DNA from: Mizuhopecten yessoensis
Lineage: Eukaryota
Assembly (NCBI RefSeq): GCF_002113885.1
Contig: NW_018408761.1
Location: 997,580 to 1,061,579 of the forward strand
Reading direction: 5' to 3'
Length of the DNA stretch: 64,000 nucleotides
Of the stretch, positions 27,592-58,000 are shown one piece after another. The translations under genes and the position numbers were made by a program. Each line of letters starts with the position of its first letter. The first letter of the stretch is position 1. The notes beneath the pieces were generated by a model that searched no databases, was not told where the DNA came from, and worked only from the letters and a program-made list of their open reading frames with translations.

Positions 27592-27865
27592 CTGTAGTGG
27601 TATCACATCAGTGGAATAGCATGTCGATGTGAGATTTGTCCACGAGATGATGTCTGTTGTTGTTTAAATCCAAACTGTTTGTTTGGCCTCTTGTCAAATT
27701 TTAAAATGGTAACACTAGTTTTTGACTGACTAGTAGTAAGTTTTGACAAATCAGCCAGTTTGAGCAACTCAGTTGTTTCCATTGTTGCAACGTCCTCTTG
27801 ATTGGGATAAAAGTTCATATAAATCCCTGCCTCACTTAGATGGCTTTCCATGATGTACTTCTCAC

Positions 27866-32388: not shown

Positions 32389-32488
32389 ACAAAACGTGAA
32401 CCACCACCTGATGCGGAGCCTGGCGTCACGAGGAGGCGGTACCTATTACCATTACAACTATAAGACACGCTCCGTTTGGGAGGCCAGG
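32389..32488 (+). CDS. PARP4: PARP4-like exon 22 (VWA end)
   Basis: Acceptor GTTTTTATGAAG|. (G)QNVNHHLMRSLASRGGGTYYHYNYKTRSVWEAR (compare vertebrate STANRHVLRILSQCGAGVFEYFNAKSKHSWRKQ). Donor AGG|GTGAGT. Confidence 0.85.
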
Positions 32489-33507
32489 GTGAGTGATCCA
32501 GTCTCATCACCTTGTTGTATGAGGCTTTGTTATTGTTGGTTGTAAGCAAGGGAGAAACTCTCAGCATCATCCTGAGAAAATAATCTGACCCAAGCATCTG
32601 CACTAACAAATCTCATATGAAGGATTGTAATTTTAACACAGTACTGGGTCTCTTCTAAAGTGGTGGACGTTTTTTTGTTTCAAACATTACTATACTGTAG
32701 ACCTTGGTTTGAACTCTCATACTAGTAGAATGACTCAGGCATTTATATTCACAAAGTTCACTACAAAGCAAACAGTCATTTAAGTCAGAATGAACAAAAA
32801 ATATAACACTGAGTTCCTTGTTAAATTTCTTTTTGCAAATAATGTTAACGAGCTTTCCTTTAGCATAGGAAAGGGGGTGAGTCTAAATTACAGGTAACAA
32901 ACTTAGTGGTTAAACTATATCATAGTGATCTCAATGTCTTTACTCTAATATACAATTTCGCAACTTTCGTGTTGAGCGATAAACTTCATGTTTTTCCTGC
33001 CATATAATTTCACTGAACCTATTGGAACAGAAGATAATGCCCAAATTCTTCAAGAATTTCTTGAAGTCTCTCAAAAAACAGGGACATAATTCAAATCAGA
33101 GCTTAGTCAATGATTAAAGCTTAATAGGGTAGAAACATGCAGACTAGATCACAAATTAAAAACAAATTTTGCTACTGAAATCATCACATTACATATTGGA
33201 ATACTGGTAGAAGTGGTTCAGTATGATTTACAGAAACAATTATACATATAGATTTGAAATATAGCATTACAAAGAGACAATCTACAGGAAATACGTGTTT
33301 AAAGCTGTCAATCAATATCCATTCCCTTAGTTAACTCATTCACCCCTGATTTCATAATGAATTATTCCAAACTTTGAATTGGAAGAGTTCAAATGTGTCT
33401 TCAGGGGTAATTGAGTTAAATATGATCTCTGAAAATTTCATCTTTAAGAGATATTTAAGAGGTAGTCTTGTACTTCTATGTCACTTTTATGTTTTAATAC
33501 TCTCCAG

Positions 33508-33678
33508 ATGAACACTCAAGTTCAGAAGGCATGCCGTCCAGGTATTTCTGGTGTTAAAGTGGAGTGGCAGCAAAACATGGACACGACCAACAGACCTCTT
33601 CAGGCCCCTAATCACATCCCAAGTTTGTTTTCTGGGTCACGACAGGTCGTGTATGGCTTTGTACCTAACTGTACACAG
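33508..33678 (+). CDS. PARP4: PARP4-like exon 23
   Basis: Acceptor ATACTCTCCAG|. MNTQVQKACRPGISGVKVEWQQNMDTTNRPLQAPNHIPSLFSGSRQVVYGFVPNCTQ (compare vertebrate ..VSVKWQQ...LQAPAQVPSLF...LLVYGFIPHCTQ). Donor CAG|GTGAGA. Confidence 0.9.
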
Positions 33679-35760: not shown

Positions 35761-35920
35761 ATAAAATAAAACGAGTTCATTACAAAGCTGACAGGACCAA
35801 AAATGATGTATTCAATATCAATATCAATATTGATTATATTAGGAGACTGTAAGTGCAGAATTAAGTTCTTTGCAAAGGGGTTTTTAATGTGTGGTGGAAC
35901 TGGAATGGGTTGATTGTCGG

Positions 35921-36010
35921 TGGCCAGGTAGCTCAAATAGTAGTGTCTGTCTAGTGTTGTGAGGGTTCCAGGTTTGAACCCCAGTCTGGCCATTGCATTT
36001 CTGTTTTGCA
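35921..36010 (+). mobile_element. tRNA-derived SINE head (degenerate A and B boxes)
   Basis: GGCCAGGTAGCTCAAATAGTAG...GGTTCCAGGTTTGAACCCCAGTCTGGCCATTGCATTTC. A related, better preserved copy lies at 62690-62790. Confidence 0.45.
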
Positions 36011-36078
36011 ACAAATGTATTGTTGTGTCTGGTTGTAATTTGGTTAGTCTGTTTAATGAAGAAGGTAAAAAGGTTATA

Positions 36079-37118
36079 TTAGCTCACCTATGAGCTTATG
36101 GTATGGCGTGTTGTCACTCGTCTGTCATCCGCCCGTCATTGAGTCTGTCGTTCATCGTCCCATCAACGTTTTCTTTGAATGGCTTGTTCTCAAGAACTGG
36201 AGGACCTAGGGCCATGATATTTGTTCAGTAGGTACCTGGGACAGAGTGCTGTAATATTTTCTCAAATAAATGACCTTAACTTACTTTCTATGTCACAGGG
36301 GTTAAATATATAAAAAAACCTTTAAACAACTTCTTCTGAATAACCAGGAGGCCCAGAGTAATAATACTAGGTCAGTATGTACCTGGCATGAAGTGCTATA
36401 AAGTGTCCTCAAACAAATGACCTTGACTTACTTTCAAGGTCACAGGGGTCAAATGTGTTTAAAAACCTTTAAAACATCTTCTTCTGAATTTCTGAATAAC
36501 CAGTAGGCTAAGAGTCATGATATTTGGTTTGGCCAGTAGGTTCATGGGACAGAGTGCTATAAGTTTTCCTCCAATAAATAACCTTGACCTACTTTCAAGG
36601 TCATGGGTTAAATATGTAAAAAATAAATTAAACATCTTCTTCTAAATAACCAGGAAGCCCAAAGTAATAATACTTGGCCAGTAGGTACCTGGCATGAAGT
36701 GCTATAAAGTTTCCTCAAATAAATGATCTTGACATACTTTCAATGTCACAGGGTTCAAAATTGTAAAAATCTTTAAACAACTTCTTCTGAATAGCTAAGA
36801 GGCTTAGAGCAATGATATTTGGCTAGTAGGTACCTGGGACAGAATGCTATCACGTTTCCTCATATAAATTACCTAGACCTCCTTTACAGTCACAGGGTTC
36901 AAATATGTGAATACTTCTTCTGCAATACCAGGATGCCCTCATTGATGATGTTTGACAAGTAGCATGCTGGGATAGAGTAGTATAAAGCTTCATTTAGTCT
37001 GGAGCATTCTTAAGCCAAGGAAACTCAATATATTAAAATATTTACAAAAGTACTTTTATTGAGAATATTTTCCCATGATTGCTCAAATAACCAGGTGAGT
37101 GATAAGAGGGCCTCTTGT
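36079..37118 (+). mobile_element. Composite non-autonomous element, family A, with approximately 120-140-bp internal units
   Basis: Head TTAGCTCACCTATGAGCTTATGGTATGGCGTG. Tail AACCAGGTGAGTGATAAGAGGGCCTCTTGTA. The internal units are related to those at 20571-21494. Confidence 0.65.
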
Positions 37119-37340
37119 AAAATGATTAAAGAGTTTCTCCATTTCAGAATGTTGTCAGTCTGTTAGAGATATATATAGATGGTAATATTTGCCTCGGACA
37201 AATAACAAACTTACAATGTCGGATCATACCAAGGTAAATATCTCTTTGTAACAATAACAAACTTACAATGTCGGATCATAACAAGGTAAATATCTCTTTG
37301 TAACAATAACAAATTACAGCAACCATCATTTATTTTACAG

Positions 37341-37421
37341 GCCTATTTGAAGGCAACTGTGGACAACATGGAGGTTTCTACGATGGTAGCAACAACAGAA
37401 CTCAACATTACACAAGGAGAG
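37341..37421 (+). CDS. PARP4: PARP4-like exon 24
   Basis: Acceptor TTTATTTTACAG|. AYLKATVDNMEVSTMVATTELNITQGE (compare vertebrate ..EFRTMVSTTELQKTTGT). Donor GAG|GTAATC. Confidence 0.85.
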
Positions 37422-37803
37422 GTAATCAACATCAATTAGAAATGGAAAATGTATTCTATTATAATATCTCATTGCTTGTGAACAGAACTCCTTTTTCAAC
37501 ATCTCGTTCATTCAGATAAATTAAAGTCTATCTACCAGAAGCATAACATTTACATCAGACTTCCAAAGGTGAATTCAAAGCATTTCTCTTGGTTGTCATT
37601 TATATTTACTTGATATTTTGTACTTTACACCACAAGCTTTCTAGTTAATTAAATCAGATTATCAGGGCCCTAGCTGGTGATTTTTATGTGAGTAAATAAA
37701 TTCTACAACCTGTGTGAAAGTTTGATGGAATAGCAGCATTGAAAACAATGTTACCTGTTTTACATGTAGTTCTCTCCCCTGATTGGATATATTTTGTCCC
37801 CAG

Positions 37804-37884
37804 ATGCTGCATCAGCTGACGGCTCGTGCGGTGATCCGTGACTACGAGGATGGCATCCTTTGTGAGGACAAGATACAACAGCGG
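37804..37884 (+). CDS. PARP4: PARP4-like exon 25
   Basis: Acceptor TTTTGTCCCCAG|. MLHQLTARAVIRDYEDGILCEDKIQQR (compare vertebrate MIHKLAARALIRDYEDGILHE). Donor CGG|GTAGGT. Confidence 0.9.
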
Positions 37885-38640
37885 GTAGGTACTCGTGCAA
37901 ACATAATCTCTTATTTTGCAATTATTCAAATGCTATTGGTACAAATTCTCAAGAAACACAAAAAAAAAAATCATAACATTAAATTACTTTTGAATAATTG
38001 AAATAATACAGAGTTGGCTGTTGGCTGTCATTGACCGTGACAAAAGGTGGATTGTTGTTCTGATGGTACTTACCAAACATACAAAACTTGTTTGCAAAGC
38101 TGTCCTTTCTGGTTTGGTCCTCTATACATCAACTAGCCAAAGATATTGCAATGATTCCCATGAAGGTTTTGTTGTAATGATTGAATCATTGCAATTAACT
38201 TAGTCATGATGAATGGATACAACCAATATTTCAGATCTAGTATTATCAAAGTTTTGTTAGTGTATAACCTGTTTCTCCATGATCAAAGAATTTTAACGTG
38301 TTTGGTGCCAACTCATGCTGGATATCTTATAGACTCTATACTGCAGATAACTCTGACCAAGATCACTGTTTCCAAGTGCTTCCATTGTGCTAAACCCTTG
38401 GTTAACGGTTACTATCCCATTGTTCTATAGATTAACCTGAAGAGAAATTCCATCTAGCCGAATCAGTAACAAAGTTTCTAAATAATTCACCACTTTGACA
38501 TAGCCCTCCATGGAAGGACCTGACCCCTAAGACTTCAGTGACAACCATAATTATGCCTTTAAGAGTAAGGCTAAAGAGATGATAAAACATAGTATTGTGA
38601 TCACATTGTAAGCACCAGTGTATACGTAACTGAGATCCTT

Positions 38641-39365
38641 ATTTCTCTTACCCTGGACAGGTGTATACACACTTTTCCTGTTGTGAGTTTATAATAGAAT
38701 CTTTCACCCCAAAGGGTGAGATGAGGGAATCTCAACCCGAGGGGGAAGATTCTTAAGTTGACAGCAAAGCCTCAGGTTCGGCAACTTAGGAGAATCTCAA
38801 CCATTCTTTCCCTGAGGGTTGAGATTCTCCTATCTCACCCCCAGGGGGATGAGAGATTATTTTTCTCTTACCCTGTTCTTGCATTGTGTATAATATACAT
38901 ATTGTAATGTTACAGGCTAAATTCAGGGTTGACGTGACGTTGATGGATTGTTTATGTGACGTCATACCATTGTTATGAATAGGGGAATCCCCCCGTTTCA
39001 ACCCTAGGGTGTGACATTGATATATCACACCGGTAAAAGTGTGGATACACCTGTCCAGGGTAAGAGAAATCCTTGTCTTTCCTAGGGTTGAGACGGGGGG
39101 ATTCCCCTATTCATAACAACTGTATGACGTTACGTCAACATTACATCAGCATCATGTCAACAACGTATTATATGATACACAATGAGTGAACAGGGTATTA
39201 AGAGAAAAATAATTATTGACCCGCTTGTGGTTGAGATTGGGGAAATATTCTTAAGTTGCCTTACACTCGGCAAAACCTCATGTTTGTCAACTTAAGAATC
39301 GTCCCCATCATGTTGAGATTCCGCTATCTCACCCGCAAGGGGTGAGAGATTCTATTATTCCAAGT
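38641..39365. mobile_element. Long imperfect palindrome / foldback element in intron 25
   Basis: TTTCTCTTACCCTGGACAGGTGTATACACACTTTT (38641-38675) versus AAAAGTGTGGATACACCTGTCCAGGGTAAGAGAAA (39035-39069). Also about 38690-39010 is mirrored as a reverse complement at about 39078-39365. For example, TTGTTATGAATAGGGGAATCCCCCCGTTTCAACCCTAGG matches CCTAGGGTTGAGACGGGGGGATTCCCCTATTCATAACAA. Confidence 0.65.
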
Positions 39366-39537
39366 TCACCCGCTAGGTCTCTAATCCAGATTTACAAAAT
39401 TCAAATCCATTCTAAACTTTCTCCTAATTATCAGAGTCAACAAGTGATTAGATGCTTCTCTACTTTGACAATCAGAAAGCCAGTACTAGCTGAATAAGTT
39501 CTCAGAATTGATTTCAGTATGAACTGTGCTTCTTCAG

Positions 39538-39639
39538 GTGCTGAAACAGGAGAGAAAGAACACCATTATACAGCTGAGCACGGAGTACTCCATTGTGACC
39601 CCCTACACCAGCTTTGTGGCCATTGAGGAAAGAGATCAG
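39538..39639 (+). CDS. PARP4: PARP4-like exon 26
   Basis: Acceptor GTGCTTCTTCAG|. VLKQERKNTIIQLSTEYSIVTPYTSFVAIEERDQ (compare vertebrate ..LSKENSLITQFTSFVAVEKRDE). Donor CAG|GTATTT. Confidence 0.9.
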
Positions 39640-40474
39640 GTATTTACAGTGTTAATAACTTGTATCTCTTGTACAGATCTGGGAAATATTAAGGGATTCC
39701 TTTACAACCTTTGGTTGGTTGGTTCACATGTTTATCAGTCAGTGTGGGGGAGGGGGGTTAAGTGGCCTTTACAAACCCTCCTAGTCATGTGTGTCTATGC
39801 ATGATCCCCACGGCACTCCTATCCCTAAGCAATCCTGTGAATGCTTCTTATATATATATTTATATACCAGATGCAAATTAAAGTCAACCTGTCTTTGTCA
39901 GCACCTCTGTTAATAAGCAGACACTTCTCTAATCCTGCCACTGTTAAGGAATATAGTACTGTATAACATGAAATGTTCGATGTGTATAAACATTCGAGGT
40001 TTTCGTGGTTTCTATTGAATCACGAAAATAAATTCAAACAAATTTGAATGATATAAGTGTCTACTGTTTGTTATTATAGGATATCCACAAAAGTTTGTAC
40101 CATGAAACGATCTAAATGGCTTCAATCCACTAAGGAAAATAGCCACGAACATTTTGTGTTATACAGTATTATAGTTATAGTCAAACAATTAATTAGAACT
40201 TGTATAATAGCCACTTGTATTCAGCAGCCACTTTTGACGATCCCTAAATCAGGTTTTACCATACAATACCTTGTCGATCTTGAATAACTAGGCCCACTGA
40301 GGACGACTCATCTTACATATGAAACAACATCTGTTGATATCTGAAATAACACACAAAATTGTCCAACTGTAATGACTTTTTTATGCTGCTTGACATTGTT
40401 TTATCATATTATTGAACTTTTTATCAAACAGCACATGAAAACATAAAATTGTTTGTGTTTCTTACCATTGTCAG

Positions 40475-40582
40475 GATGAGCAGATAACAGATGGACCATC
40501 TATTGATGACCTGGTTGCTGAGGAATCTGTAGACATTTTGGATTATGTAGGCTGGCAGAACCCTGATTTCTTTGATGAAAAG
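40475..40582 (+). CDS. PARP4: PARP4-like exon 27
   Basis: Acceptor CTTACCATTGTCAG|. DEQITDGPSIDDLVAEESVDILDYVGWQNPDFFDEK (compare vertebrate ..ELIAKEDVDFLPYMSWQGEPQ). Donor AAG|GTAAGT. Confidence 0.75.
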
Positions 40583-41235
40583 GTAAGTTCACCATAACTC
40601 TCTCTTTTTGTTAGATTCCTGATGATACCTGATTTAGTTTGTTTTAAATTTTCAAAATTCTTCATTAATAGGTTTGAATATTTTGATATGGTGAAATGTC
40701 AGGATATGTTAGTTAAAAGAAATTCTGTAGAATTTTCACTTCAAAATTGTAGAAATAATTGGGTCCCAGTGGAGGATTTAAAGTAAATCTTGTAAATTCT
40801 ATTCCTTTAGTACCAATGTAAGGATATTCTTTTTATTAATGGAGGGTGTGGACCCACTTAGGGCTGAGAGACAGGGCTCAGTTAGGGAAGTAATGTCAAA
40901 TAAAAACTTGAAAATCCTATTCCTTTGATACTGGTTAAGTTCTTTTTACCAAAGTTATTCTGTGCTCCTTAAGGGGACTCAATAATGTATTAATGGAGGG
41001 TGTCGACCCTCTGAGGGTGGAGTGGCAGGGCTCAATTCGAAAAATAAAATGTTATTCTTCCTTTTTCAGTACTGGTTAAGGGATTTTAACCAAATTTGGT
41101 CTTGGGGCTTAGGGGAGGGAATTGATTGTTGCATAAACATTTAAGTGTGTAGCACAACAAAATTATGAATAAAAGTGAAGTACAATAAGATCAACATAGC
41201 ATTTAATTTTGTTTGCTTGTTTGATTCTGATCTAG

Positions 41236-42549: not shown

Positions 42550-42726
42550 TCCCAATCGAGATACACACCCTGACTGGTAGGACTATCCCCGTGAGTGTGT
42601 CCGAGGGCGACACCGTGTCTGACTTGAAGAATAAGATCCATCAGATAGATGGACTTGACCCAGAGCAGCAGAGATTGATTGTTGGTGGGAAACCGCTGAA
42701 GGATCTCGCTGTTCTCTCCGATCTTG
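42550..42726 (+). CDS. PARP4: PARP4-like exon 30 (ubiquitin-like domain, first three quarters)
   Basis: Acceptor TTATTCCCATTGCAG|. (F)PIEIHTLTGRTIPVSVSEGDTVSDLKNKIHQIDGLDPEQQRLIVGGKPLKDLAVLSDL, which aligns with ubiquitin [58 protein letters not shown]. Donor CTTG|GTAATT, phase 1. Confidence 0.85.
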
Positions 42727-43239: not shown

Positions 43240-43925
43240 TGGGCTGTTCAAATCACTATTCATCTGTGGTCTGTCTTCCATTCATCATTCAGTCCATCCA
43301 TCCATCCATTTGTCCTTAAACAATTCTTGATAGTGCTATTTCTCAGAGAGATCTTTCTCAAGTTTCACCTGAAGGTTCCCTTTGTTCCCTAGTTATGCTT
43401 ATCAAATTAAGGGTCCTGACAAAGTGTTGTTATTTTTCGGGTCGATCAAAATTCCAATATGGCCGACATGGCCACCATTTTGAAAAAAAACAATTTCAAA
43501 CTTAAGGTCAAGTTCTGCTGGGCCGATTAAACTTAAACTTTTTAGGAATGATCGACTTATTGTCCTGACAAAGTGTTGTTATATTTCGGGTCAATCAGAA
43601 ATCCAATATGGCCACCACGGCCCCCATTTTGAAAAACTATTTCAAACTTAAAGTCAAGTTCTAATGGGCCGATTAAACTGAAACTTTGTAGGAATGATCG
43701 ACTCATGGTCCTGACAAAGTGTTGTTATTTTTCGGGTCGATCAGAAATACAATTTGGCTGCCATGGCCGCTATTTTGAAAATAACTATTTCAAACTTAAA
43801 ATCAAGTTCTAATAGGCCCATTTAACTGAAACTCTTTCTAAGAATGATCAGCTCATGGTCCTGACAAACTTAAGTTAACGTTATACTTAACTATTTTTTA
43901 CTCAAATTGGTACATATTTCAACAA
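43240..43925 (+). mobile_element. Family B element (approximately 131-bp units, about 3.5 copies), 3'-truncated
   Basis: Same GGTCCTGACAAAGTGTTGTTATTTTTCGGGTCGATCA.AAAT.CAATATGGCC...GCC.CCATTTTGAAAA units as 6443-6886. No tail motif. Confidence 0.55.
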
Positions 43926-44738
43926 CAACAAAAAATCTTGGATTTCAACAGTTCAGTTTGTTGTCACTTTTTCCCATAAAGTCCTTAAACAATAAGCATT
44001 GTACTAGTAAATAGGTAAAACAACCAGCTCGCTTTGAAAGAACAGTGTCATACACAGCAGAATGAAGGCTTTGCTCAAAAGTTACCACAATTAAGGTGCG
44101 TTACTGTTAACGTGACTCAATCTTACAGATAAGAGAGAAAAGAAGAATCTTACATAGAATCTATGAAGATAATAAGAATAATATCTTTTATTTAACCAGG
44201 GTTACATATTTAGACAATGTCTAGTTTACAATATGGCGCTGAAGCAAACTATATATACAAGCATGACAACAATTTAAGATAACAGTATAACACTGCAGTA
44301 TATGGTATCATCACAGTCAATGTAACTTGAAGTTAAGTAATCCTAAATTAGAATTTAATAGTGAACACTTGCATATCACACGAGTGTTACTGAATGATAT
44401 GGTTAAAGCATAGTCAAATATACATAATATGTTAATATGGCAAAGCGTAAAAAATGACAAGATATACACCAATTAGTCCAATATAGTGTGTATTAAAATG
44501 AGACAAAGAAGTCGGTGGTGTGAAAAATAATAATTTATGATAGAAATATGATGGTACGATAGTCGGTGTCAAGGTCCCCCGGGGATCTCTTGTTTTAAAA
44601 GACAGAAAGATGTGAAAATGAAAATAAAGCATTAATGGGGAAAATAAAACACGAACTGCTAAAGAGGTTAATGTCGTTTTCTTTAAGGCAGTGGCCAATC
44701 ATATCGTCCACAGTCATATCTAAAAGCAGATCTATGCT

Positions 44739-46463
44739 TTTTAGCTCACCGGCCTGAAGGGCAAGTGAGCTTATGCTATGGCGCGGCGTCAGGCATCCGT
44801 CATCTTTTCCTAAAAAACGCTACTTGTCATAAACGACTGAGCAGATTTTGACCAAATTTGGTCAGAAGCATCCTTATGGGAAGGGGAACAAATTTTGTAT
44901 AAATGGTGGGTCTGGCCCCCTAGGGGCTGAGGGGTGGGGCCCAATAGGGAAAATATAGCAAATTCTTTAAAATCCTTCTTCTTTTGTAGGAATAAAAGGA
45001 TTGGTTCCATATTTGGTCTGAAGCATCCTTGGGGGAAGAGGAACCAATTTTGTATAAATGGGGGGTCTGGCCCCTGAGGGGCCTGAGCGACAGGCCAAAT
45101 AGGGGAAACATAGCAAATTCTTTAAAATCCTTCTTCTGTAGGAATGAAAGGATTTGTTCCATATTTAGTCTTAAGCATCCTTGGGTTAAGGGGAACCAAT
45201 TTTGTATAAACTGTGGGTCTGGCCCCTTTGGGGCCTGAGCGACGGGGCCCAATAGGGGAAACATAGCAAATTCTTTAAAATCTTTCTTCTGCAGGAATGA
45301 AAGGATTTGTTCCATATTTGGTCTGAAGCATCCTTGGGTGAAGTGGAACCGATTTTGTATAAGCAAGGGGTCTAGCCCCCATGGATCTGAGGGGCGGGGC
45401 CAAAAGGGGTCAATTGCGCTATATTGATTTAAGCGACTTCTTCTCTGGAACTAAGAGATGGATATCAACCATATTTGACTGGAAGCATCCCTCTGTAGTG
45501 GAGATTCACAATTGTACAAATGGTTGGGCTGACATCCCAGGGGGCTGAGGTGCGGGTCCAAAAGGGCGCAATTTGGCTATATTGGTGTACGACTTCTTCT
45601 GTAGCATTATACCATGGATATCGATCATATTTGGTCAGAAGCTTTCATGGGAAGTAGGGATTCAAAATTGTACAAATGGTGGGGCTGACCCCCCGTGCTA
45701 AGGGGTGGGGCCAAAAAAAGTTTATTACTTGGAAATGGTTGAGATCCCAACCATATAACCATATATATAATTGTGGAGTATGAAGAGAAGCATTCACATT
45801 TGCTTCAAGGATGGCCTAGGGTCTGGCCCCACCCTTTGAGACATAGTCCCTGGGTCATATCTTTGAAACGATTGAGATCCGCACCCCAGAACTATATATA
45901 CAAATGCTTGGCATAAAGAGACAAAAGTAGTCATGGTATTAAAATAGACCCTGGGGTCTGACCGAACCCCTAGGGACCTAGTTTCTTAGTCACAGCTTCG
46001 AAACAGTTGAGATCCCCACCCTATAACTATGCATATATACAATTGCTGAGTATAAAGAGATGAATGCACATATGCTTCCAGGATGGCCTTGGGGTCTGCC
46101 CAAACTTTGCAGACTTAACCCCTGGGTAAATATAACTTTGAAACAGTTGAGATCCCCACCCCAAGACTATAAATACAAATGCTAGACAAAAAGAGACGAA
46201 TATAGTCATGATATTATAATTGATCCTGGCGTCTGGCCACAACCCGAGGGATCTAGTTTCTGAGTCACAGCTTGGAAACAGTTGAGATCCCCACCCCATT
46301 ACCATACATTAAATTGCTGGGCATGAAAAATCTAATACAGACATACTACAAGAATTGACATTGGGGTCTGGCATATACCCTTGGATCTCATTTGGAGAAT
46401 ATTTTGCTTTTTGATTGCTTAGATATTCAGGTGAGGAATTCAGGCCCTCTGTGCCTCTTGTTT
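44739..46463 (+). mobile_element. Long family A composite element (three different internal tandem arrays), ending about 130 bp upstream of exon 31
   Basis: Head TTTTTAGCTCACCGGCCTGAAGGGCAAGTGAGCTTATGCTATGGCGCGGCGTC. Internal arrays of about 120 bp (44860-45400), about 165 bp (45400-45720) and about 150 bp (45720-46320). Tail TTCAGGTGAGGAATTCAGGCCCTCTGTGCCTCTTGTTT. Confidence 0.7.
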
Positions 46464-46593
46464 ACCATAAGAATACATCATATTTGATTGAGAGGATGTG
46501 CTTTTAGAGGTGGCAGCTGTTTTGATACAACGTTATGTGAGGGCATGAGTTAGCCTCTATATAACAATTGTATTTTTTTTCTATATTCTTCAG

Positions 46594-46694
46594 ATCTGGA
46601 GTATAATGCTGTCTTCCTGTTACCAAGGCTGCGAGGGGGACTTAGTTTTGGTCTCAAGGAAGATTTGAAAACAAAGCGTATTCTCGCGGAAAAC
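46594..46694 (+). CDS. PARP4: PARP4-like exon 31 (ubiquitin-like domain C-terminus with RLRGG)
   Basis: Acceptor TTTTCTATATTCTTCAG|. (D)LEYNAVFLLPRLRGGLSFGLKEDLKTKRILAEN. RLRGG is at 46626-46640. Donor AAC|GTATGA, phase 0. Read-through of the donor gives V then TGA. Confidence 0.8.
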
Positions 46695-46777
46695 GTATGA
46701 TATGACAATAAGACATAAAATGTGGATTCCACTCTCAAAAATCTAAGGGTGGGGTAGAAAGTGGTTTATTGGACATT

Positions 46778-48637
46778 TTTAGCTCACCTGCCCGAACGGC
46801 AAGTGAGCTTATGCCATGGCGCGGCGTCCAGCATCCTTCAACTTTTCCTAAAAATCGCTACTAGTCATAAACGACTGAGCAGATTTTGACCAAATTTGGT
46901 CAGAAGCATCCTTATGGGAAGGGGAACAAATTTTGTATAAATGGTGGGTCTGGCCCCCCTGGTGGCTGAGGGGTGTGGCCCAATAGGGAACACATAGTAA
47001 ATTCTTTAAAATCCTTCTCCTTCTGTAGGATTGAAAGGATTTGTTCCATATTTGGTCTGATGCATCCTTAGAGAAAGAGGAACCAATTTTGTATAAACCG
47101 TGGGTCTGGACCCCGAGGGGCCTGAGGGGTGGGGCCCAATAGGGAACACATAGTAAATTCTTTAAAAACCTTCCTCTTCTGTAGGAATGAAAGGATTTGT
47201 TCCATATTTGGTCTGAAGCATCCTTAGGGAAAGAGGAACCAATTTTGTATAAACCGCGGGTCTGGCCCCCGAGGGGCCTGAGGGGTGGGGCCCTATAGGG
47301 ATCACATAGTAAATTCTTTAAAATCCTTCCTCTTCTGTAGGAATAAAAGGATTTGTTCCATATTTAGTCTGAAGCATCCTTGGGTAAAGGGGAACCAATT
47401 TTTTATAAACCATGGGTCTGGCCCCACAGGGGCCTGAGCGACGGGGCCCAGTATGGGAAACTGAACAATTTCTTTAAAATCCTTCTTCTCTGTAGGAATG
47501 AAAGGATTTGTTCCATATTTGGTCGGAAGCATCCTTCGGTGAAGGGGAACCAATTTTGTATAAACAAGAGGTCTGGCCCCCAGGAACTTGAGGGGCGGGG
47601 CCAAAAGGGGGCAGTTGCGCTATATTAATTTAAGCGACTTCTTCTCTGGAACTAAGGGATAGATATCAACCATATTTGACTGAAAGCATCCCTCGGAAGA
47701 GGAGATTCAAAATTGTACAAATGGTTGGGCTGACCCCCCGTGCTAAGGGGTGAGGGTTGCTATTAACGACTTATTCTGTAGAATTATGCTAAGGATATCA
47801 ATCATATTTGGTCAGAAGTATTCATGGGAGGTAGGGATTCAAAATTGTACAAATGTTTGGGCTGACCCCCCTGTGCTAAGGGGTTGGGCCAAAAAAGGTT
47901 TATTACTTGGAAATGGTTGAGATCCCCGCGGTATAACCATATATACAATTGTGGAGTATAAAGGGAAGCATGCACATTTGCTCCCAGGATGGCCTAGGGT
48001 CTGGCCCCACCCTTTGAGACATAGTCCCTGGGTCATAACTTTGAAATGATTGAGATTTCCACCCCAGAACTATATATACAAATGCTTGGCATATAGAGAC
48101 AAAAGTAGTCATGGTATTAGAATAGACCCTGGGGTCTGACCGAACCCCTAGGGACCTAGTTTCTTAGGCAAAGCTTCGAAACAGTTGAGATCCCCACCCT
48201 ATAACCATGCATATATACAATTGCTGAGTATGAAGAGATGATTGCACATATGCTTCCAGGATGGCCTTGGGGTCTGCCCCACCCTTGCAGACTTAACCCC
48301 TGTGTCATAACTTTGAAACAGTTGAGATCCCCACTTTAAAACTATATACAAATGCTGGGCTTAAAGAGAAGAAACCAGTCATGATATTAAGAATTGATCC
48401 AGGGGTCTGGCCACAACCCTAGGGATCTAGTTTCTGAGTCACAGCTTGGAAACAGTTGAGATCCCCACCCCATAACCATACATTAAATTGCTGGGCATGG
48501 AAAATCTAATACAGACATACTACAAGAATTGGCATTTGGATCTGGCATATTCCCTTGGATCTCATTTGGAGAATATTTTGCCATGATTGCTTAGATATCC
48601 AGGTGAGCGATTCAGGCCCTCTGGGCCTCTTGTTTTT
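46778..48637 (+). mobile_element. Long family A composite element, starting about 84 bp downstream of exon 31
   Basis: Head TTTTTAGCTCACCTGCCCGAACGGCAAGTGAGCTTATGCCATGGCGCGGCGTC. Same array order as 44739-46463. Tail TCCAGGTGAGCGATTCAGGCCCTCTGGGCCTCTTGTTTTTT. Confidence 0.7.
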
Positions 48638-48765
48638 TAAATCTACTCTTCATGAATGATAGGTTTCTTCAGTACCTTTAAATTGTGAATGCAATTACCC
48701 TGATGTCTCCCATTCACCACTGGGAAGGGGGAAATTCTGCTACATTTCCTATGGTTATAACAGCT

Positions 48766-50481
48766 TTTAGCTCACCTGGTCCGAAGGACCAGGGTGAGCT
48801 TATGCCATACCATGGCATCCGTCGTCCGTACGTACGTCAACAATTTCTTTAAACGACTTCTTCTTCTTAACCACTGGTTGGAATTAAACTAATTTTGACT
48901 GGAAGCATCCCTAGGTGGTTGGGATTCAAAATTGTACAAATGGTGGGGCTGACTCCCCAGGGGGCTGAGGGGTGGGGCCAAAAGGGGTCAATTTGCCCAT
49001 ATTGCTGTAAGCGACTTCTTCTCTGGAACTAAGAATTGGATATCAACCATATTTGACTGGAAGCATCCCTAGGTGGTGGTGATTAAAAATTGTACAAATG
49101 GCGGGGCTGACTCCCCAGGGGGCTTAGGGGGGGCCAAAAGGGGGCAATTTTGCTATATTGCTACAAACGACTTCTTCTGTAGAACTGTGCACTGGATATC
49201 AATCATATTTGATCAAAAGCATTCCTGGGAGGCAGGGATTTAAAATTGTACAAATGGTGTGGCTGACCCCCCAGGGGGCTGAGGGGCAGGGCCAAAAAGG
49301 GTATTTGGCTATACTGCTTTAAGTGACTTCTTCTCTGGAACTAAGTGATGGATATCAACCTTATTTGACTGGAAGCATCTCTAGGTGGTGGAGATTCAAA
49401 ATTGTACAAACGGTTGGGCTGACCCCCCAGGGGGCTGAGGGGCGGGGCCAAAAGGGGGCAATTTGGTTATATTGCTATAAATGACTTCTTCTGCAGAACT
49501 ATGCCATGGATATTGATCATATTTGGTCGGAAGTATTCATGGGAGGCAGGGATTCAAAATTGTACAAATGGTGGGGCTGACCCCCCGGGCTAAGGGGTGG
49601 GGCCAATAAAATGTATTACTTGGAAATGGTTGAGATCCCCACCATATAACCATATATACAATTGCTGAGTATAAAGAGAAGAATGCACATTTGCTTCCAG
49701 GATGTCCCTAGGGTCTGGCCCCACCCTTGGAGACATAGTCCCTGGGCCATAACTTTAAAACGGTTGAGATCCCCACCCCAAAACTATATATACAAATGCT
49801 GGGCATAAAGAGACGAATGCAATCATGATATCAGAATAGACCCTGGGGTCTGACCGAACCCCTAGGGACCTAGTTTCTTAGTCACAGCTTGGAAACAGTT
49901 GAGAGCCCCACCCTATAACCGTATATATACAATTGCTGAGTATAAAGAGATGATTGCACATATGCTTCCAGGTTGGCCTTGGGGACTGCCCCACCCTTGG
50001 AGACTTAACCCCTGGGTCATAACTTTGAAATGGTTAATATCCCCACCCCAAAACTATATATACAATTGTTGGGCATAAAGAGACGAATGCAGTCATGACA
50101 TTAGAATTGATCCCAGGGTCTGCCCCACCCTTGCAGACTTGGCCCCTGGGTCATAACTTTGAAACGGTTGAGATCCCCACACCAAAACTTTATATACAAA
50201 TGCTTGGCAAAAAGAGACAAATGCAGTCACGATATTAGAATCGATCCTGGGGTCTGGCCACAACTCTAGGGACCTAGTTTCTGAGTCAAAGCTTGGAAAC
50301 AGTTGAGATCCCCACCCCATAACCATACATAAAATTGCTGGGCATGAAAAATTTAATATAGCTATGCTACAAGGATTGGCCTTGGGGTCTGGCATATTCT
50401 CTTGATCTCATTTGGAGAATAGTTTGCCATGATTGCTTAGGTATCCAGGTGAGCGATACAGGCCCTCTGGGCCTCTTGTTT
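48766..50481 (+). mobile_element. Long family A composite element (third consecutive copy)
   Basis: Head TTTTAGCTCACCTGGTCCGAAGGACCAGGGTGAGCTTATGCCATACCATGGCATCCGTCGTC. Tail TCCAGGTGAGCGATACAGGCCCTCTGGGCCTCTTGTTT. Confidence 0.7.
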
Positions 50482-50554
50482 ATTTATCCTCAGCAGAAAA
50501 TAATTCAGTTCAATTTTTGTTATGGCATGGCATCGATATAGAATCTATTTTAGT

Positions 50555-51060
50555 TGTTGTACAACATAAAGATTTGTGGTTAAATTCTAAGCTATGAGAT
50601 ATGAAGTCTCTCTTACTCACCGGTACTCAGTATAACATGAAGATTTGTGGTTAAATTCTTAGCTATGAGATATGAAGTCTCTCTTACTCACCGGTACTTA
50701 GTATAACATGAAGATTTGTGGTTAAATTCTTAGCTATGAGATATGAAATCTCTTTTACTTGCTGTATAACATGAAGATTTGTGGTTAAATTCTTAGCAAT
50801 GAGATATGAAATCTCTTTTACTTGCTGTATTATATGGAGATTTGTGGTTATATTCTCAGCTATATGATATAGAATCTCTTTTACTTGGTGTATAATATGG
50901 AGATTTGTAGTTATATTCTCAGCTATATGATATAGAATCTCTTTTACTTGCTGTATAACATGTAGATTTGTGGTTAAATTCTCAGACATGTGATATAGAA
51001 TATCCTTTACATGGGGAAAATATGAAGTTTGTTGGTAAATTATTAGCTATTTTTAGTGAA
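50555..51060. repeat. 62-71-bp minisatellite, about 8 copies, 170 bp upstream of exon 32
   Basis: The (A/G)AGATTTGTGGTTAAATTCT.AGCTATGAGATATGAA.TCTCT.TTACT.. units are spaced 71, 71, 63, 62, 65, 63 and 62 bp apart. This generates ORF 50684-50989 (-). Confidence 0.9.
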
Positions 51061-51232: not shown

Positions 51233-51459
51233 GACATGAATGAGTATGATCAGATATATGGTAAGAAGGTGCATACGGAAAAGGACAAAAGCTGTACTGA
51301 TGATGGAAAAAACCCGGTGAAGATGTCCTCATTGTTTTCTCCTTTTAGGCAATCCTTACGAATGATGGCTCCAAGGAAACAGTTAGCAACCAAAGCTGCC
51401 AGAAAATCTGCACCTGCAAACTTTGATGAAAATGAGGAGGAGCAGAATGAGGATGACAG

Positions 51460-51497: not shown

Positions 51498-54313
51498 TTG
51501 AAAAGATGGGCAACTTTAGCTGCATGGCACTTCCAGATGACAACGTGGTTGATGATGCTACGAACAAGAAACAGGAAGTGTCAGATGTAGGAAGAATACC
51601 AGACTCTCCACTCTCAGCAACACAGTTTGGCCCCTTGTCTCCAAAATGTTCAGATTCATTTGGTACAAACTTTGAAAAATTTGAAATCTCTCAGTATTTA
51701 GATGAAGACATGGAGATTGATTTAGATACTGAAGACCCGGCATTCCTCATTCTCACTTCTGAAATATCTGACATATTTTCACCTTCAATGGCAGGCCATT
51801 CTCAGGACACTCCAGCCTATATATCAACCTCCCCATCTTACAAACCAACTTCCCCATCCTATTCGCCCACTTCCCCATCTTACAAACCAACTTCCCCATC
51901 CTATTCGCCCACCTCCCCATCTTACAAACCAACTTCCCCATCCTATTCGCCCACCTCCCCATCTTACAAACCAACTTCTCTATCCTATTCGCCCACTTCC
52001 CCATCTTACAAACCAACTTCTCCATCCTATTCACCAAATAGAAGAGCACGAAGAGCCAAATCAACATTTGAGGATTTCCAACATGAATCAACATCAAACA
52101 ATAAAGATTTTGTGGTTTCAGGTTCAAGACAAGCAAAGTCAAGCAGCACATCTAGTGAACATGGTTTGTGTGGAGCTCCAGTGCAAGCAGAACCAGGCAG
52201 TAAACCAAGTCAGAGCTTCAATTTTAATGCTTCGCTACAAACAGCATCAAGCAATGAACCAACACAAAGTTTGGGATTGGGGGCTCCAAACCTAGCAGAA
52301 CTAGGCGGTAAACCAAGTCAGGGGTTCAATTTTAGTGCTCCTCTAGTAACAGCATCAAGAAATATATCAACACAAAGTTTGGGATTGGGGGCTCCAAACC
52401 TAGCAGAACCAAACACAATGCCAAGTCAAGGGTTTTCCTTTGGAGCTCGAATGCAAACAACTCAAAGCGCTTCACCAGCCGAAGGTTTCAGTTTTTCTCA
52501 GAATCAAACATTGCAGAGCATTACCAGTAAAGGAAGCCATTGTTTTGGATTTGGGACTTCAAAACCAGCCGGAGCAAGCAGAACGACAAGTCAAGGGTTT
52601 TCCTTTGGCGCTCAAATGCAGTCCCAACGATGCAATATACCAACCCAAGATTTCTATTTTGGAGCTTCAAATTCAGCAGGTTTTGGAGATGACGGTGACA
52701 GACGTGGTGGTTATGGAGGTGTCAGTGTTAGACCTGGTGGTTATGGAGATGACAGTGACAGACGTGGTGGTTATGGAGGTGTCAGTGTTAGACGTGGTGG
52801 TTATGGAGGTGTCAGTGAGGGACTTGGTGGTTATGGAGGTGTCAGTGTTAGACGTGGTAGTTATGGAGGTGACAGTGTTAGATGTGGTGGTTATGGAGGT
52901 GTCAGTGAGGAATGTGGTGGTTATGGAGGTGTCAGTGAGGGACTTGGTAGTTATGGAGGTGTCAGTGAGGGACTTGGTAGTTATGGAGATGACGGTGTCG
53001 GACGTGGTGGTTATGGAGATGACAGTGTCGGACGTGGTGGTTATGGAGGTGACAGTGTCGGAGGTGATGGTTATGGAGGTGTCAGTGAGGGATTTGGTGG
53101 TTATGGAGGTGACAGTGAGGGATGTGGTGGTTATGGAGGTGTCAGTGTTAGATGTGGTGGTTATGGAGGTGTCAGTGAGGGACGTGGTGGTTATGGAGGT
53201 GACAGTGAGGGACGTGGTGGTCCTAGACTTGCTGGTTCTAAAGATGGACATGTTTCTTACATAGAAACAGCACCAACATTTACATATTTGAAGGATCTTG
53301 ACTTGAATTTAGCAAAACATGATCCAAAAACTAGGATATTGAAGGAAAATGACAGAAGACCTTCCAGTGTAACAGAGAAGGATCTGCCTTCACAGCCTTT
53401 CAGACATGTACAGGATAAAATGTTCCCACCAGACTTTGATGAATCCTTATTACCTAAACAAAAGAGAAAAATTCCTCCTGTTGGAAGAGGAGGTTCTGGA
53501 TTCACTGCAAGGAATGACCAGGGTCCTGCTGAAACAACCAAAGAACAAGGTCGAAGGTCATTAAAGTCAGTCAGAGGCGCAATGCATGGTGCAAGATCAA
53601 GAGACAGAAATAGGGAACAATCTCGTGAGCTTATTGTGCTGGATAAGAGTAAAAAACTAAGTTTGAGTCATGACAGAAGGCGGAGGAGTTTGAGTAGAAG
53701 TTTGAGTCGAGACAGAAGACAGAGGAGTTTGAGTAGAAGTTTGAGTCGAGACAGAAGGCGGAGGAGTTTGAGTAGAAGTTTGAGTCGAGACAGAAGGCGG
53801 AGGAGTTTGAGTAGAAGTTTGAGTCGAGGAAGGGGGAGAAGAGACTTGGAAAGATGTTACAGTAGAGATAGAGCAAGAAAGGAAAATAAAAAAATGCACA
53901 GATCAAGTGGAAATAATGATACAAACAGTAGGAATAAAAATAGGGACAAAGCAGGAAGCAAAATAGACAGAGATCCTGCAAGAGAAAGTAAGAAACAGAT
54001 AAAGCATAAAAATGAAAAGAAGGAGCAAACAAAGGCTGATGAACAGGTTGTCAAAACATTTGGGAAAAAAGGGAAGAAAAGGGAACAGACAAGGGATGAT
54101 GAAGAGATTGTCAAAACTGGAGGGAAGAACCTGTCAGGAAAGTTGGAATATGATGATCATGAGAAAATGGACTTTACAGTGGACATGGCACCAACTTTGA
54201 AAGTCTGGGATGTAACATCAGAGACAGGCAAGGACATTGTGAAATTCATAAAGTATATTTCTGATTCAATCTTCTTTTATATACAAAAGATCTGTAATTT
54301 TCTACAAATTCAA
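51233..54313 (+). CDS. PARP4: PARP4-like exon 32: 3081-nt low-complexity exon (H3-tail copy, poly-Asp, CTD-like heptads, FG-like, GGYGG, RS and Lys-rich modules)
   Basis: Acceptor TTCTGTATTTCAG| with phase 0 from exon 31. Single open frame of 1027 codons (the track ORF 51236-54337 is the same frame). Donor CAA|GTGAGC after ..KICNFLQIQ (compare vertebrate PARP4 ..SCFLQIK..). An alternative weaker donor is ATCT|GTAATT after 54293. Confidence 0.8.
51368..51418 (+). other. Histone H3 tail copy: [17 protein letters not shown] (identical to H3 residues 15-31)
   Basis: Direct translation of GCT CCA AGG AAA CAG TTA GCA ACC AAA GCT GCC AGA AAA TCT GCA CCT GCA in the exon 32 frame. Confidence 0.9.
51461..51496 (+). 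repeat. (GAT)12 coding microsatellite, poly-Asp tract
   Basis: Twelve uninterrupted GAT codons within [18 protein letters not shown]. Confidence 0.95.
51824..52039 (+). repeat. RNA polymerase II CTD-like heptad array (42-bp two-heptad unit, about 10 heptads)
   Basis: [72 protein letters not shown]. Confidence 0.9.
52214..52687 (+). other. FG-nucleoporin-like segment
   Basis: SFNF, GFNFS, GFSFG, GFSFS, CFGFG, GFSFG, FYFG and AGFG motifs, separated by uncharged S/T/Q/N/A/G/P-rich spacers. Includes a 34-aa duplicated unit ([20 protein letters not shown]). Confidence 0.7.
52700..53221 (+). repeat. 30-bp coding tandem repeat, about 17 copies of the decapeptide (R/L/C)GGYGG(V/D)S(V/E)(R/G)
   Basis: [50 protein letters not shown]...[14 protein letters not shown]. 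Other frames on both strands stay open across it because of the repeat. Confidence 0.9.
53657..53833 (+). repeat. 42-bp coding tandem repeat, 4 copies of [14 protein letters not shown] (RS-domain-like)
   Basis: [62 protein letters not shown]. Confidence 0.9.
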
Positions 54314-54344: not shown

Positions 54345-54975
54345 GTAATGATATACAGTCCTGCAGTAAAACTTGTCTAAGAACTCACCTGTCTAAATCA
54401 TCTTGTAGTGTTACAGTCCTACAGTAAAACTTGTCTTAGAACTCACCTGTCTAAATCATCTTGTAATTATATTTATACAGCCCTACAGTAAAACTTGTCT
54501 AAGAACTCACCTGTCTAAATCATCTTGTAATTATATATATACAGTCCTACAGTAAAACTTGTCTTAGAACTCACCTGTCTAAATCATCTTGTAATTATAT
54601 ATATACAGCCCTACAGTAAAACTTGTCTAAGAACTCACCTGTCTAAATCATCTTTTAGTGTTACAGCCCTACAGTAAAACTTGTCTAAGAACTCACCTCT
54701 CTTAATCATCTTGTAATTATATATATACAGTCCGACAGTAAAACTTGTCTTAAAACTCACCTGTCTAAATCATCTTTTAGTGTTACAGCCCTACAGTAAA
54801 ACTTGTCTAAGAATTCACCTGTCTAAATCATCTTGTAGTGTTACAGTACTACAGTAAAACTTGTCTAAGAATTCACCTGTCTAAATCATCTTGTAGTGTT
54901 ACAGCCCTACAGTAAAACTTGTCTAAGAACTCACCTGTCTTAATCATCTTGTAATTATATATATACAGTCCTACA
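54345..54975. repeat. 57-65-bp minisatellite, about 10 copies, starting about 30 bp after the exon 32 donor
   Basis: CCTACAGTAAAACTTGTCT(A/T)AGAACTCACCTGTCTAAATCATCTTGTA(GTGTTACAG / ATTATATATATACAG) repeated. Confidence 0.9.
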
Positions 54976-55605
54976 GCATTTCATGTCTCAGAATCGATTT
55001 GTGTAAACCAACTTGTGTCCATGTTATATTTCATGGTAATCTCAAAATCCAAGATGGTTGCCCTTAGTTATCCTTTTCATTGGGTAAAACCCTTCCTCTG
55101 AGACATTTTCAATTTTTGTATACTAGAAAATGTTTCTTATGTGAAACTCAAATAATGTTGTTACTTTTCATGACAAAAATACAAGATAGCCACCAATGGC
55201 TCCGATTTGCAGACAGTTGCTATTTCTCTATAACAGTAGCAATTGACTTCTAACTAATCTAAATGATTCAAATTTAATGTTCCTGTATTGTTTAAAAAAA
55301 ATGTAATTCATGTGAGCGTTAAAGCTTATTTCGTTTCTTGTTATTATACATATATCTACACTGTCCATAACAACCAAATGCATGCTCAAGGAAAGGCTAA
55401 CTGTTAAAACAGAATCTGATGTCATGCACTTTTTTCCCATATTGATCATTAAGTTTCATTCAACAAACCTTAATCGTTGGATATGGAAAAAATATCCTAG
55501 AATAGATAACAAACTACAGTTTAGAAGTATCATAAATCATTTGGTATATCTAGAACATCTAATTAAAAAGAAAAGAGAATAATAACATTTGTTCTATTGT
55601 TACAG

Positions 55606-55640
55606 GTGAAGCAGCTCCCTCCTCAGTTCCTGCGATGTAA
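55606..55640 (+). CDS. PARP4: PARP4-like exon 33 (mini-exon; donor choice uncertain)
   Basis: Acceptor TTCTATTGTTACAG|. VKQLPPQFLRC(N) using donor TAA|GTATGA (ends 55640, phase 2). An alternative frame, (C)EAAPSSVPA(I), uses donor GAT|GTAAGT (ends 55636). It is also phase-consistent if exon 32 ends at 54293. Confidence 0.55.
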
Positions 55641-56228: not shown

Positions 56229-56956
56229 TTTAGGTCACTTGAGCTTAAGCTCAATTGACCTATTGTTATCCGTCTTTGTCCGTCGTCTTCCGTCGTGCGT
56301 CGTCAGTCGTGTGTCGTCATTTTACATTTTCAACTTAAGCTGAAATACTGGCAAAGGGATTTCATTAATATTTCATGGGAAGTTTACTGACATTTTCCAG
56401 ACAAAGTGTTAATATTTTTCGGGTCAATCAGAAATCCAATATGGCCACCACGTCTGCTATTTTGAAAAACTATTTCAAACTTAAAGTCAAGTTCTGCTAA
56501 GCCGATTGAACTGAAACTTTGTCGGAATGATCGACTCATGGTCCTGACAAAGTATTGTTATTTTTCGGGTTGATCCGAAATCTGATATGGCCGACATGGC
56601 CGCCATTTTGAAAAACTCTTTCAAACTTAAAGTCAAGTTCTACTGGGCCGATTGAACTAAAACTTAATAGGAATGATCGACTCATGGTCCTGACAAAGTG
56701 TTGTTATTTTTCGGGTCGATCAGAAATCCAATATGGCCACCAAGGCCGCCATTTTGAAAATAACTATTTCAAACTTAAAGTCAAGTTCTGCTAGGCCGAT
56801 TTAACTGAATCTTTTTAGGAATTATTGACTCATGGTCCTGACAAACTTAAGTTAACGTTATACTTAACTATTTTTTACTCAAATTGGTACATATTTCAAC
56901 AACAAAAATAAATACTGTAGGACTCGGGTGACCGTTAAGGCCCATGGGCCTCTTGT
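56229..56956 (+). mobile_element. Family B composite element directly abutting the previous element
   Basis: Head TTTTTAGGTCACTTGAGCTTAAGCTCAATTGACC. About 131-bp units, about 3.5 copies. Tail CTCGGGTGACCGTTAAGGCCCATGGGCCTCTTGTT. Confidence 0.65.
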
Positions 56957-57418: not shown

Positions 57419-58000
57419 TATGCCCCCACCATAAAATGGGGAGGCATATATAGTGTTACCCATGTCTGTCCCGTCGCGTCCCGTCCCGTCCCGATTCAAT
57501 GTAAACACTTGGCAGCTTCATTCTTCGACAGATTTTGGTCAAACTTTATACAAAGGTCAAGTATGAGTATACTTCGGACATCGTTTTATTTCAGGGATCC
57601 AAGGTCAAGGCCAAGATCACACTTGCTATATATAGAAAATCATCAACTGATACAATTTAAACACTTAGCAACTTCATTCTTTCAAGGATTTTGGTCAAAC
57701 TTTATGCAAAGGTCAAGTATGAGTATACTTCGGACATTGTTGTGTTTCAGGGTTCCAAGGTCAAGGCCCAGGTCAATGTTGCTATATATAGAAAATCATC
57801 TACTGATTAAATTTAAATGCTTAGCAACTTCATTCAATATGTTATGGAGATGGTAATAACATACAGAAAATACATATGAATATTAAAATCAACTTTAAGT
57901 GTAGTACCTTGTGTGTGTGCATGTTTCAGGGTATCAAGATCAAAGTGGTTGTAACTTTTTATAGAACACAGAAACTAATTTCACATGGCAGTGGGGGCAT
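57419..58000. mobile_element. TIR element (ATGCCCCCAC ... GTGGGGGCAT) with internal approximately 140-bp tandem units, starting about 26 bp after the exon 34 donor
   Basis: ATGCCCCCAC at 57421-57430 and GTGGGGGCAT at 57991-58000. The internal duplicated unit produces the repetitive ORF 57509-57856. Confidence 0.6.

Follow-up and report, generated by a model that had tools for sequence, protein, structure and literature searches.

RS domains, the Arg/Ser-rich regions of SR proteins, have been delimited in several ways. The SR-protein definition of Manley and Krainer from 2010 reportedly asks for consecutive RS or SR dipeptides. An SR protein of animals has also been defined by one or two RNA recognition motifs (RRMs) at the N-terminal side and, at the C-terminal side, an RS region of ~50 amino acids (aa) or more with an RS content of >40% (PMC9767378). 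Greig et al. used two operational rules for segments of 60 aa: an RS segment has a fraction of Arg plus Ser of at least 0.6 and a Ser-to-Arg ratio of 1 ± 1, and a mixed-charge segment has a fraction of charged residues of at least 0.7 and a positive-to-negative ratio of 1:1 ± 0.3 (bioRxiv 10.1101/771592). RS domains behave as mixed-charge domains rich in arginine, with phosphorylation tuning their net charge; when such arginine tracts are poorly phosphorylated and net-positive, they end up in nucleoli or aberrant bodies (bioRxiv 10.1101/771592). Clustered (blocky) arginines together with a net positive charge cause a shift from speckles to the nucleolus (PMC9324279), and Lys blocks plus Glu-rich regions constitute a nucleolar grammar (PMC11938373). 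Here I describe an RS-like array encoded in a 64,000-nucleotide stretch of the genome of the scallop Mizuhopecten yessoensis (NCBI RefSeq assembly GCF_002113885.1, contig NW_018408761.1, positions 997,580 to 1,061,579 of the forward strand), hereafter the window, whose first letter is position 1. The array lies in an open reading frame (ORF) of 1033 aa (Table 1). It is a young in-frame 39-bp minisatellite with three near-identical and two degenerate units. The reading that I prefer, and to which I give an even chance, is that the array is a phosphorylation-tunable basic disordered tract in an orphan, coding-like ORF, probably for nuclear or nucleolar targeting.

The repeat structure of the array is simple. 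Tandem Repeats Finder reported a 39-bp repeat at 53659-53828 with 4.4 copies, 95% matches, 0% indels, and a score of 312, and a separate repeat search gave start-to-start spacings of 39, 39, and 39. The units begin at 53657, 53696, 53735, 53774, and 53813, the first and the last being degenerate. Units 3 and 4 are identical, and unit 2 is two nucleotides apart from both (RRQR versus RRRR). In a preliminary description of this DNA, the unit had been given as 42 bp, or 14 aa. The true unit is 39 bp, or 13 aa; the 14-mers overlap one another by a single Arg at the boundary. Four copies had also been counted. The tandem arrangement stands, but only three units are good, with degenerate ones leading and trailing them, and the array extends to 53842 rather than ending at 53833. 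The quoted peptide of the array, the 13-mer upstream, and the two 19-mers downstream were found to be the exact product of the ORF frame when the sequence was read directly. On the plus strand, the array is open in the ORF frame only; in either of the remaining frames, each unit contains one to three stops. Among its 62 residues are 26 Arg, 18 Ser, 10 Leu, and four Asp (Arg plus Ser 0.71), which amounts to a net charge of about +22 in the unphosphorylated form.

Is this array an RS domain? Its 62 aa, in the C-terminal quarter of the ORF, are long enough for an RS region. The RS content exceeds 40% only marginally, 28 of the 62 residues (45%) being in RS or SR dipeptides. No RRM was found in the ORF by Pfam or in the AlphaFold2 model. 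The dipeptides are not consecutive. The alternating Arg-Ser dipeptides that had been reported for the array do not hold up, as the longest alternating run is three residues, RSRS occurs neither in the array nor anywhere in the ORF, and the array has no SP sites. As for composition, 38 segments of 60 aa (starting at residues 795-833) pass the RS rule of Greig et al., with a best Arg plus Ser of 0.72 and a Ser-to-Arg ratio of 0.72. No segment of the plain sequence passes the mixed-charge rule (fraction charged 0.48, with 25 positive versus four negative residues), and 58 segments pass it when every Ser is counted as negative. Thus, the earlier RS-domain-like assignment is right as to an Arg/Ser-rich tract passing a rule of composition and wrong as to the SR-protein definition. 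The array is RS-like by composition and is not a member of the SR-protein family, because it has no RRM and no consecutive RS dipeptides. Motifs of basophilic kinases were also found in the array: three of the RRxS-hydrophobic type, four RxRxxS, and eight RSxSx, the last being the 14-3-3 mode-1 motif minus its proline. Since the array serines fit these motifs equally, SRPK and CLK are not the sole candidate kinases, and SRPK/CLK phosphorylation and speckle targeting of the array are putative. Taken alone, the array is ordinary. Low-complexity tracts rich in Arg and Ser are widespread, and the non-canonical RSLSR motif is of little additional interest.

The host ORF is by far the longest in the window when all six frames are compared, the runner-up having 474 aa. 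The stop frequency across the window is 0.059 per codon, and 637 codons of the ORF lie outside tandem arrays; from these two values, the chance of such an open frame was calculated to be ~1e-17. Mononucleotide shuffles of the region gave a longest ORF of at most 210 aa. Codon usage was scored on the 523 most strictly non-repetitive codons of the ORF, using a codon table built from 688 codons of neighbouring scallop coding DNA as a reference. The log-likelihood per codon was -3.94 in the ORF frame and -3.87 for the reference coding DNA, compared with -4.13 and -4.37 for the other two frames and -4.26 to -4.40 for the reverse strand and three intergenic controls. The base composition by codon position also agrees with the reference coding DNA. 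The four large arrays inside the ORF have periods of 42, 108, 30, and 39 bp, all divisible by three, with 0% indels. Several of the flanking non-coding satellites have periods of 58, 122, 134, and 146 bp and up to 22% indels.

The product of the ORF is predicted to be almost wholly disordered. AlphaFold2, run on the single sequence, gave a mean predicted local distance difference test score (pLDDT) of 34, with 984 of the 1033 residues below 50, and no folded domain was present in the model. No family, RRMs included, scored above the cut-off when the entire ORF and its N- and C-terminal parts were scanned with Pfam, and an Rfam scan of the window gave no match. When the RS region was compared with PDB chains by HMMER, no match was obtained at E ≤ 10. 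Because of its length statistics, its codon usage, its frame-keeping arrays, and this predicted disorder, the ORF has the appearance of a coding exon, genuine now or until very recently, whose product is an intrinsically disordered protein. A splice-acceptor-like sequence, ttctgtatttcag/ (the slash marks the boundary), which is a pyrimidine tract with AG, ends at 51232, three bases ahead of the first ATG. Since it precedes the first ATG, there may be exons upstream. The exon could also end ahead of the stop codon, at a weak GT donor at 54253. Downstream exons were sought in 54.3-64 kb, and no convincing coding piece was found there.

Basic stretches also occur near the array within the ORF. 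The Lys-rich duplicated units that had been noted downstream of it are real: the two copies (54017-54073 and 54074-54133) are 57 and 60 nucleotides long and differ in length by one in-frame 3-nucleotide indel, and none of 2000 shuffles reached their alignment score. The strict K(K/R)x(K/R) motif occurs once, at residue 944 within this duplication. The tail after the array (residues 870-965) has 20 Lys, 11 Arg, nine Asp, and nine Glu, and its KK and KKGKK blocks alternate with Asp- or Glu-containing stretches. Upstream of the array, the basic cluster PKQKRKIPP resembles, by eye, a nuclear localisation signal of the SV40 type and might act as one.

I propose the following mechanism because of the published observations on the tuning of RS domains, on clustered arginines, and on Lys blocks. 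If the ORF is translated, the unphosphorylated RRRR blocks would cooperate with the Lys/Arg-rich tail and the PKQKRKIPP cluster. These cooperating basic blocks would bind RNA and acidic partners, and would make the protein accumulate in the nucleus, preferentially in the nucleolus. If the 18 serines were phosphorylated, the array would come near charge balance (26 positive versus 22 negative, with every Ser taken as negative). The neutralised array would then shift to speckle-like mixed-charge behaviour or be released. The translation of the ORF is inferred, as are the phosphorylation, the kinase class, and the localisation of the array product.

As had been described, the array shares its single continuous ORF with several other low-complexity modules. 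The H3-like 17-mer includes K18, K23, R26, K27, and S28 of the histone, and its boundaries are abrupt. Upstream of it, RQS aligns with R8-K9-S10 of H3. The 17-mer is encoded with A/T-ending codons (AGG, AGA, TTA), which are unlike those of typical histone genes. A poly-Asp run lies between the 17-mer and the heptads of the type found in the C-terminal domain (CTD) of RNA polymerase II (Pol II). Four of the heptads are YSPTSPS and five are YKPTS[PL]S, the two types alternating, and in a homology search with the whole ORF they drew RPB1 matches down to E 1e-83. The resemblances to H3 and to the CTD heptads are far beyond chance. In contrast, the nucleoporin-like FG and the FUS/RGG-type GY resemblances are compositional only. 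The FG region gave no significant match to PDB, with chance-level matches only at E ~1. Eight RGG motifs are present in the whole ORF, seven of them in the GY array, and [GS]YG motifs number 17. Across the 30-bp GY array, two alternative-frame ORFs were seen at 52440-53264 (plus strand, 274 aa) and at 52673-53251 (minus strand, 192 aa); they were rejected as independent genes, being by-products of the stop-free repeat. Nothing relevant turned up when the literature was searched for a protein with this set of modules or for orphan repeat genes of scallops. To my knowledge, no described protein has an H3 peptide together with CTD heptads and FG, RGG/GY, and RS-like tracts. The array is unremarkable by itself, and it is the composite ORF, with its H3 17-mer, heptads, FxFG tract, and RGG/GY tract, that is unusual.

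Table 1. Features of the 1033-aa ORF and their positions in the window
Feature	Position	Strand	Details	Basis
ORF hosting the array, 1033 aa	51236..54337	+	1042 codons stop-to-stop	
Histone H3-like 17-mer	51368..51418	+	aa 45-61; 17/17 identical to H3 residues 15-31	
Pol II CTD-type heptads, nine contiguous	51839..52027	+	aa 202-264; 42-bp repeat, 96% matches	
FxF(G)-type tract	52172..52678	+	includes 108-bp repeat; seven FxF motifs; 14/169 residues charged	
GY array	52679..53221	+	18 units of 30 bp encoding G(Y)GG(V/D)S..(R)G	Repeat analysis
Basic cluster PKQKRKIPP	53453..53479	+	aa 740-748	Read from translation
Mixed-charge flank upstream of the array	53591..53656	+	22 aa	Sequence read directly
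RS-like array	53657..53842	+	aa 808-869; 62 aa; unit peptide 13 aa	
K/R/D/E/N-rich linker	53843..54016	+	non-repetitive; net positive; ends KHKNE	Sequence, composition
Lys-rich tandem duplication	54017..54133	+	two 19-aa-class units	Alignment of both copies
Predicted helix	54221..54304	+	aa 996-1023; sole predicted secondary-structure element of the ORF; pLDDT 60-69	AlphaFold2

Several observations weigh against the reading of the array as a tunable targeting tract. The ORF is a putative gene, its transcription and translation being presumed. No protein containing the ORF was found in a collection of 5.8 billion proteins, though the species is annotated at NCBI. The whole-ORF query of this collection returned RPB1 CTD matches only and is uninformative about orthologues; a 286-aa query made from the unique C-terminal flanks had no matches there, and an exact-sequence look-up of the 1033-aa ORF found no record. 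For residues 661-1033 (373 aa), a phmmer search of 1.84 billion representatives gave no homologue; the sole match (P0128, E 8.5e-5), to an unrelated RDTWIRHLDKTLG repeat protein, was rejected as a repeat-on-repeat artefact. Pecten maximus, Ylistrum balloti, and four Logan-derived sequences gave orthologues of a neighbouring gene and none for the ORF. A scan of viral contigs found no relative of the ORF and, because it was empty, an endogenous-virus origin is unsupported. The ORF is placed between satellite arrays, and no paralogue of it exists elsewhere in the window. The array may be a poor SRPK substrate because it is without consecutive RS dipeptides. The copy number of its units is uncertain, as it comes from a short-read-era assembly. 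The ratio of nonsynonymous to synonymous differences per site (pN/pS) between units is 0.52 for the RS array (from only 18 differences), 2.45 for the FG array, and 3.55 for the GY array, and nothing in these differences points to purifying selection at the protein level. Since this statistic is uninformative or contradictory for young, concertedly evolving arrays, I weighed it neither way. In summary, the searches detected for the ORF neither the orthologues nor the gene model of a conserved protein-coding gene, and it appears to be a lineage-restricted orphan. Conservation in orthologues had been named in the preliminary description as a check, with its lack counted against the claim; provisionally, lack of conservation is what was found.

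Many of these observations fit an alternative in which the ORF is non-functional. The ORF would be a recent, decaying, or never-expressed frame made of in-frame minisatellites and captured gene fragments, and the array would have no protein role. This explanation is the strongest of the rivals, and I consider it somewhat unlikely rather than improbable. It is supported by the absence of the ORF from the proteome of an annotated species and from the protein collection, by the lack of any orthologue or distant relative, and by the satellite DNA on both sides of the locus. The identity of 95-96% within the arrays of the ORF indicates a very recent expansion, and neither the FG nor the GY array has a pN/pS of less than 1, uninformative as this statistic is here. 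On the other hand, the open frame of 1042 codons is far beyond chance in the calculation as well as in the shuffles. Its codon usage and position-specific base composition are coding-like and differ from those of the other frames and the controls. The arrays keep the frame without indels, and even the Lys-rich duplicate has its indel in frame. If histone genes differ in codon usage as stated above, the codons of the H3 match would speak against its having been copied recently and unaltered from a histone gene.

It was also considered that the ORF encodes a secreted structural protein of the shell matrix or byssus. The array would then be a basic block that binds acidic matrix or mineral, and the nuclear likenesses would be coincidental. 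The host organism is a bivalve. Mantle secretomes of molluscs typically hold fast-evolving orphan proteins with such blocks (shematrin-like, KRMP-like, and Asp-rich proteins), and byssal adhesives contain Y/K/P/S/T repeats. A poly-Asp run, an 18-unit G/Y-rich array, and basic Lys/Arg-rich tracts occur together in the ORF, and the acceptor-like site at 51232 leaves space for an upstream signal-peptide exon. In contrast, no signal peptide was seen at the N-terminus of the ORF itself when the sequence was read directly. The 17/17 identity to H3 and the exact YSPTSPS heptads go far past what coincidence would give and indicate nuclear parents. Like the FG domains of nucleoporins, the FxF(G) tract carries little charge, and an SV40-like basic cluster is present. 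A secreted protein is therefore improbable.

A bolder version of the nuclear reading takes all the modules together. The ORF might encode an expressed, scallop-specific nuclear "multi-mimic" acting as a decoy, sponge, or scaffold, in which the RS-like array supplies phosphorylation-controlled targeting to nuclear bodies or import. I keep a small probability on this idea because no described protein has this combination of modules. It might, for instance, be an analogue of the germline repressors PIE-1, Pgc, and Pem that evolved independently of them. PIE-1 reportedly acts through a CTD-like motif. All three are mutually unrelated, taxon-specific disordered repressors of the germline that interfere with phosphorylation of the Pol II CTD (PMC5927453).

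The weakest explanation, which takes the preliminary description literally, is a true RS domain belonging to a splicing factor of the SR or SR-related type, with processive SRPK and CLK phosphorylation and a role in splicing; it draws on the length of at least 50 aa, the 45% of residues in RS or SR dipeptides, the passed compositional rule, and RD/RE-rich flanks like the mixed RS/RD tracts of the U1-70K type, and it is very improbable given that there is no RRM or other RNA-binding domain, no consecutive RS dipeptide, no SP site, no PDB chain match at E ≤ 10 from a library that holds SR proteins and U1-70K from spliceosome entries, no homologue found in the searches above, and a remainder of the ORF that is unlike a splicing factor.

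The window contains several other genes and gene pieces. At 1230-2606 on the minus strand lies a single-exon coiled-coil gene that is 100% identical to the NCBI entry "caldesmon-like [Mizuhopecten yessoensis]", an identity that marks the window as DNA of the Yesso scallop. Its orthologues are 77-78% identical in Pecten maximus and Ylistrum balloti, and four further relatives (Logan, ENA) were found at 41-75%. An exact look-up of the neighbour protein P0121 gave no record. A 207-aa ORF at 27836-28459 on the minus strand has several hydrophobic segments and the look of a membrane protein; it belongs to no Pfam family and had no record by exact look-up. Several exons of a vWA-domain gene are located upstream of the 1033-aa ORF on the same strand (~31000-40600, plus strand). 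When concatenated, these pieces match VWA_3 (E 1.7e-6), and VWA5A/VIT-like C-terminal motifs such as SIVTPYTSFVAIEE were recognised by eye. At 42551-42726 on the plus strand, a lone exon bounded by good splice sites (cag/ ... /gtaatt) encodes positions 1-57 of 72 of a domain of the ubiquitin family (PF00240, E 2e-15). The rest of the ubiquitin fold was sought in 42.7-55 kb and was not found. As a direct upstream exon of the 1033-aa ORF, this exon was rejected because the splice phases are incompatible. It may represent a ubiquitin-like gene that was truncated or became a pseudogene, or it may belong to a gene model yet to be resolved.

Satellites around the 1033-aa ORF occupy 43300-50500, 50535-51050, 54346-54976, 56390-56850, and 57493-57835. 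Arrays of ~155 bp lie at 44.8-49.6 kb, a 63-bp array stops 185 bp ahead of the ORF, and a 58/122-bp array begins 9 bp past its stop codon. By eye, translated repeat pieces at ~43.3-43.8 kb closely resemble the 146-bp satellite at 56.4-56.85 kb, and the same satellite family may lie on both sides of the ORF. Around the ORF, neither long terminal repeats nor inverted repeats were found, and satellites alone were present. Further downstream, a possible mini-exon of 31 nucleotides with near-consensus splice sites was seen by eye at 55606-55636 on the plus strand (ttgttacag/GTGAAGCAGCTCCCTCCTCAGTTCCTGCGAT/gtaagt).

The array would matter only through its host ORF. Each module of the ORF corresponds to a known class of ligands for nuclear enzymes, readers, condensates, or import receptors. 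If expressed, the ORF would be a natural experiment in combining the "grammars" of disordered regions, and if the multi-mimic idea is true, it could be a lineage-specific decoy for the chromatin, transcription, splicing, or transport machinery. The locus would also illustrate how a minisatellite that expands in frame can give rise to RS-like domains de novo within a young gene.

How does the locus compare with the described systems? Like PIE-1, Pgc, and Pem, the whole ORF appears lineage-restricted, disordered, and free of homologues, and it has CTD-like heptads, a loose likeness. Its heptads are of the phosphorylatable consensus and not a non-phosphorylatable analogue, and the RS array has no counterpart in those proteins. 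For the product of the ORF, germline expression, P-TEFb binding, and repression would be conjecture. The RS domains of SR and SR-related proteins (SRSF1-12, SRRM1/2, U1-70K) share with the array the richness in Arg and Ser, the disorder, which is predicted here, the length of at least 50 aa, the strongly positive charge unless phosphorylated, and the RD/RE-containing flanks. The array differs from them in the RSLSR motif, where Leu interrupts the dipeptides, in its RRRR blocks, and in having no RRM. It is also without detectable homology and is encoded by a young minisatellite in an orphan ORF. The nucleolar proteins with Lys blocks and Glu-rich regions (King et al. 2024, PMC11938373) resemble the tail at residues 870-965 in raw composition and in the alternation of Lys blocks with Asp- or Glu-containing stretches; the tail is short, and Asp is about as common in it as Glu. 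The arginine-enriched mixed-charge domains (Greig et al.; Miyagi et al. 2022, PMC9324279) are, like the array, arginine-based charged low-complexity tracts. The array qualifies as one of them only with its serines counted as phosphorylated, the plain sequence having a ratio of 25:4 and a charged fraction of 0.48. Its arginines are clustered in RRRR blocks, a pattern that has been tied to the nucleolus over speckles (PMC9324279).

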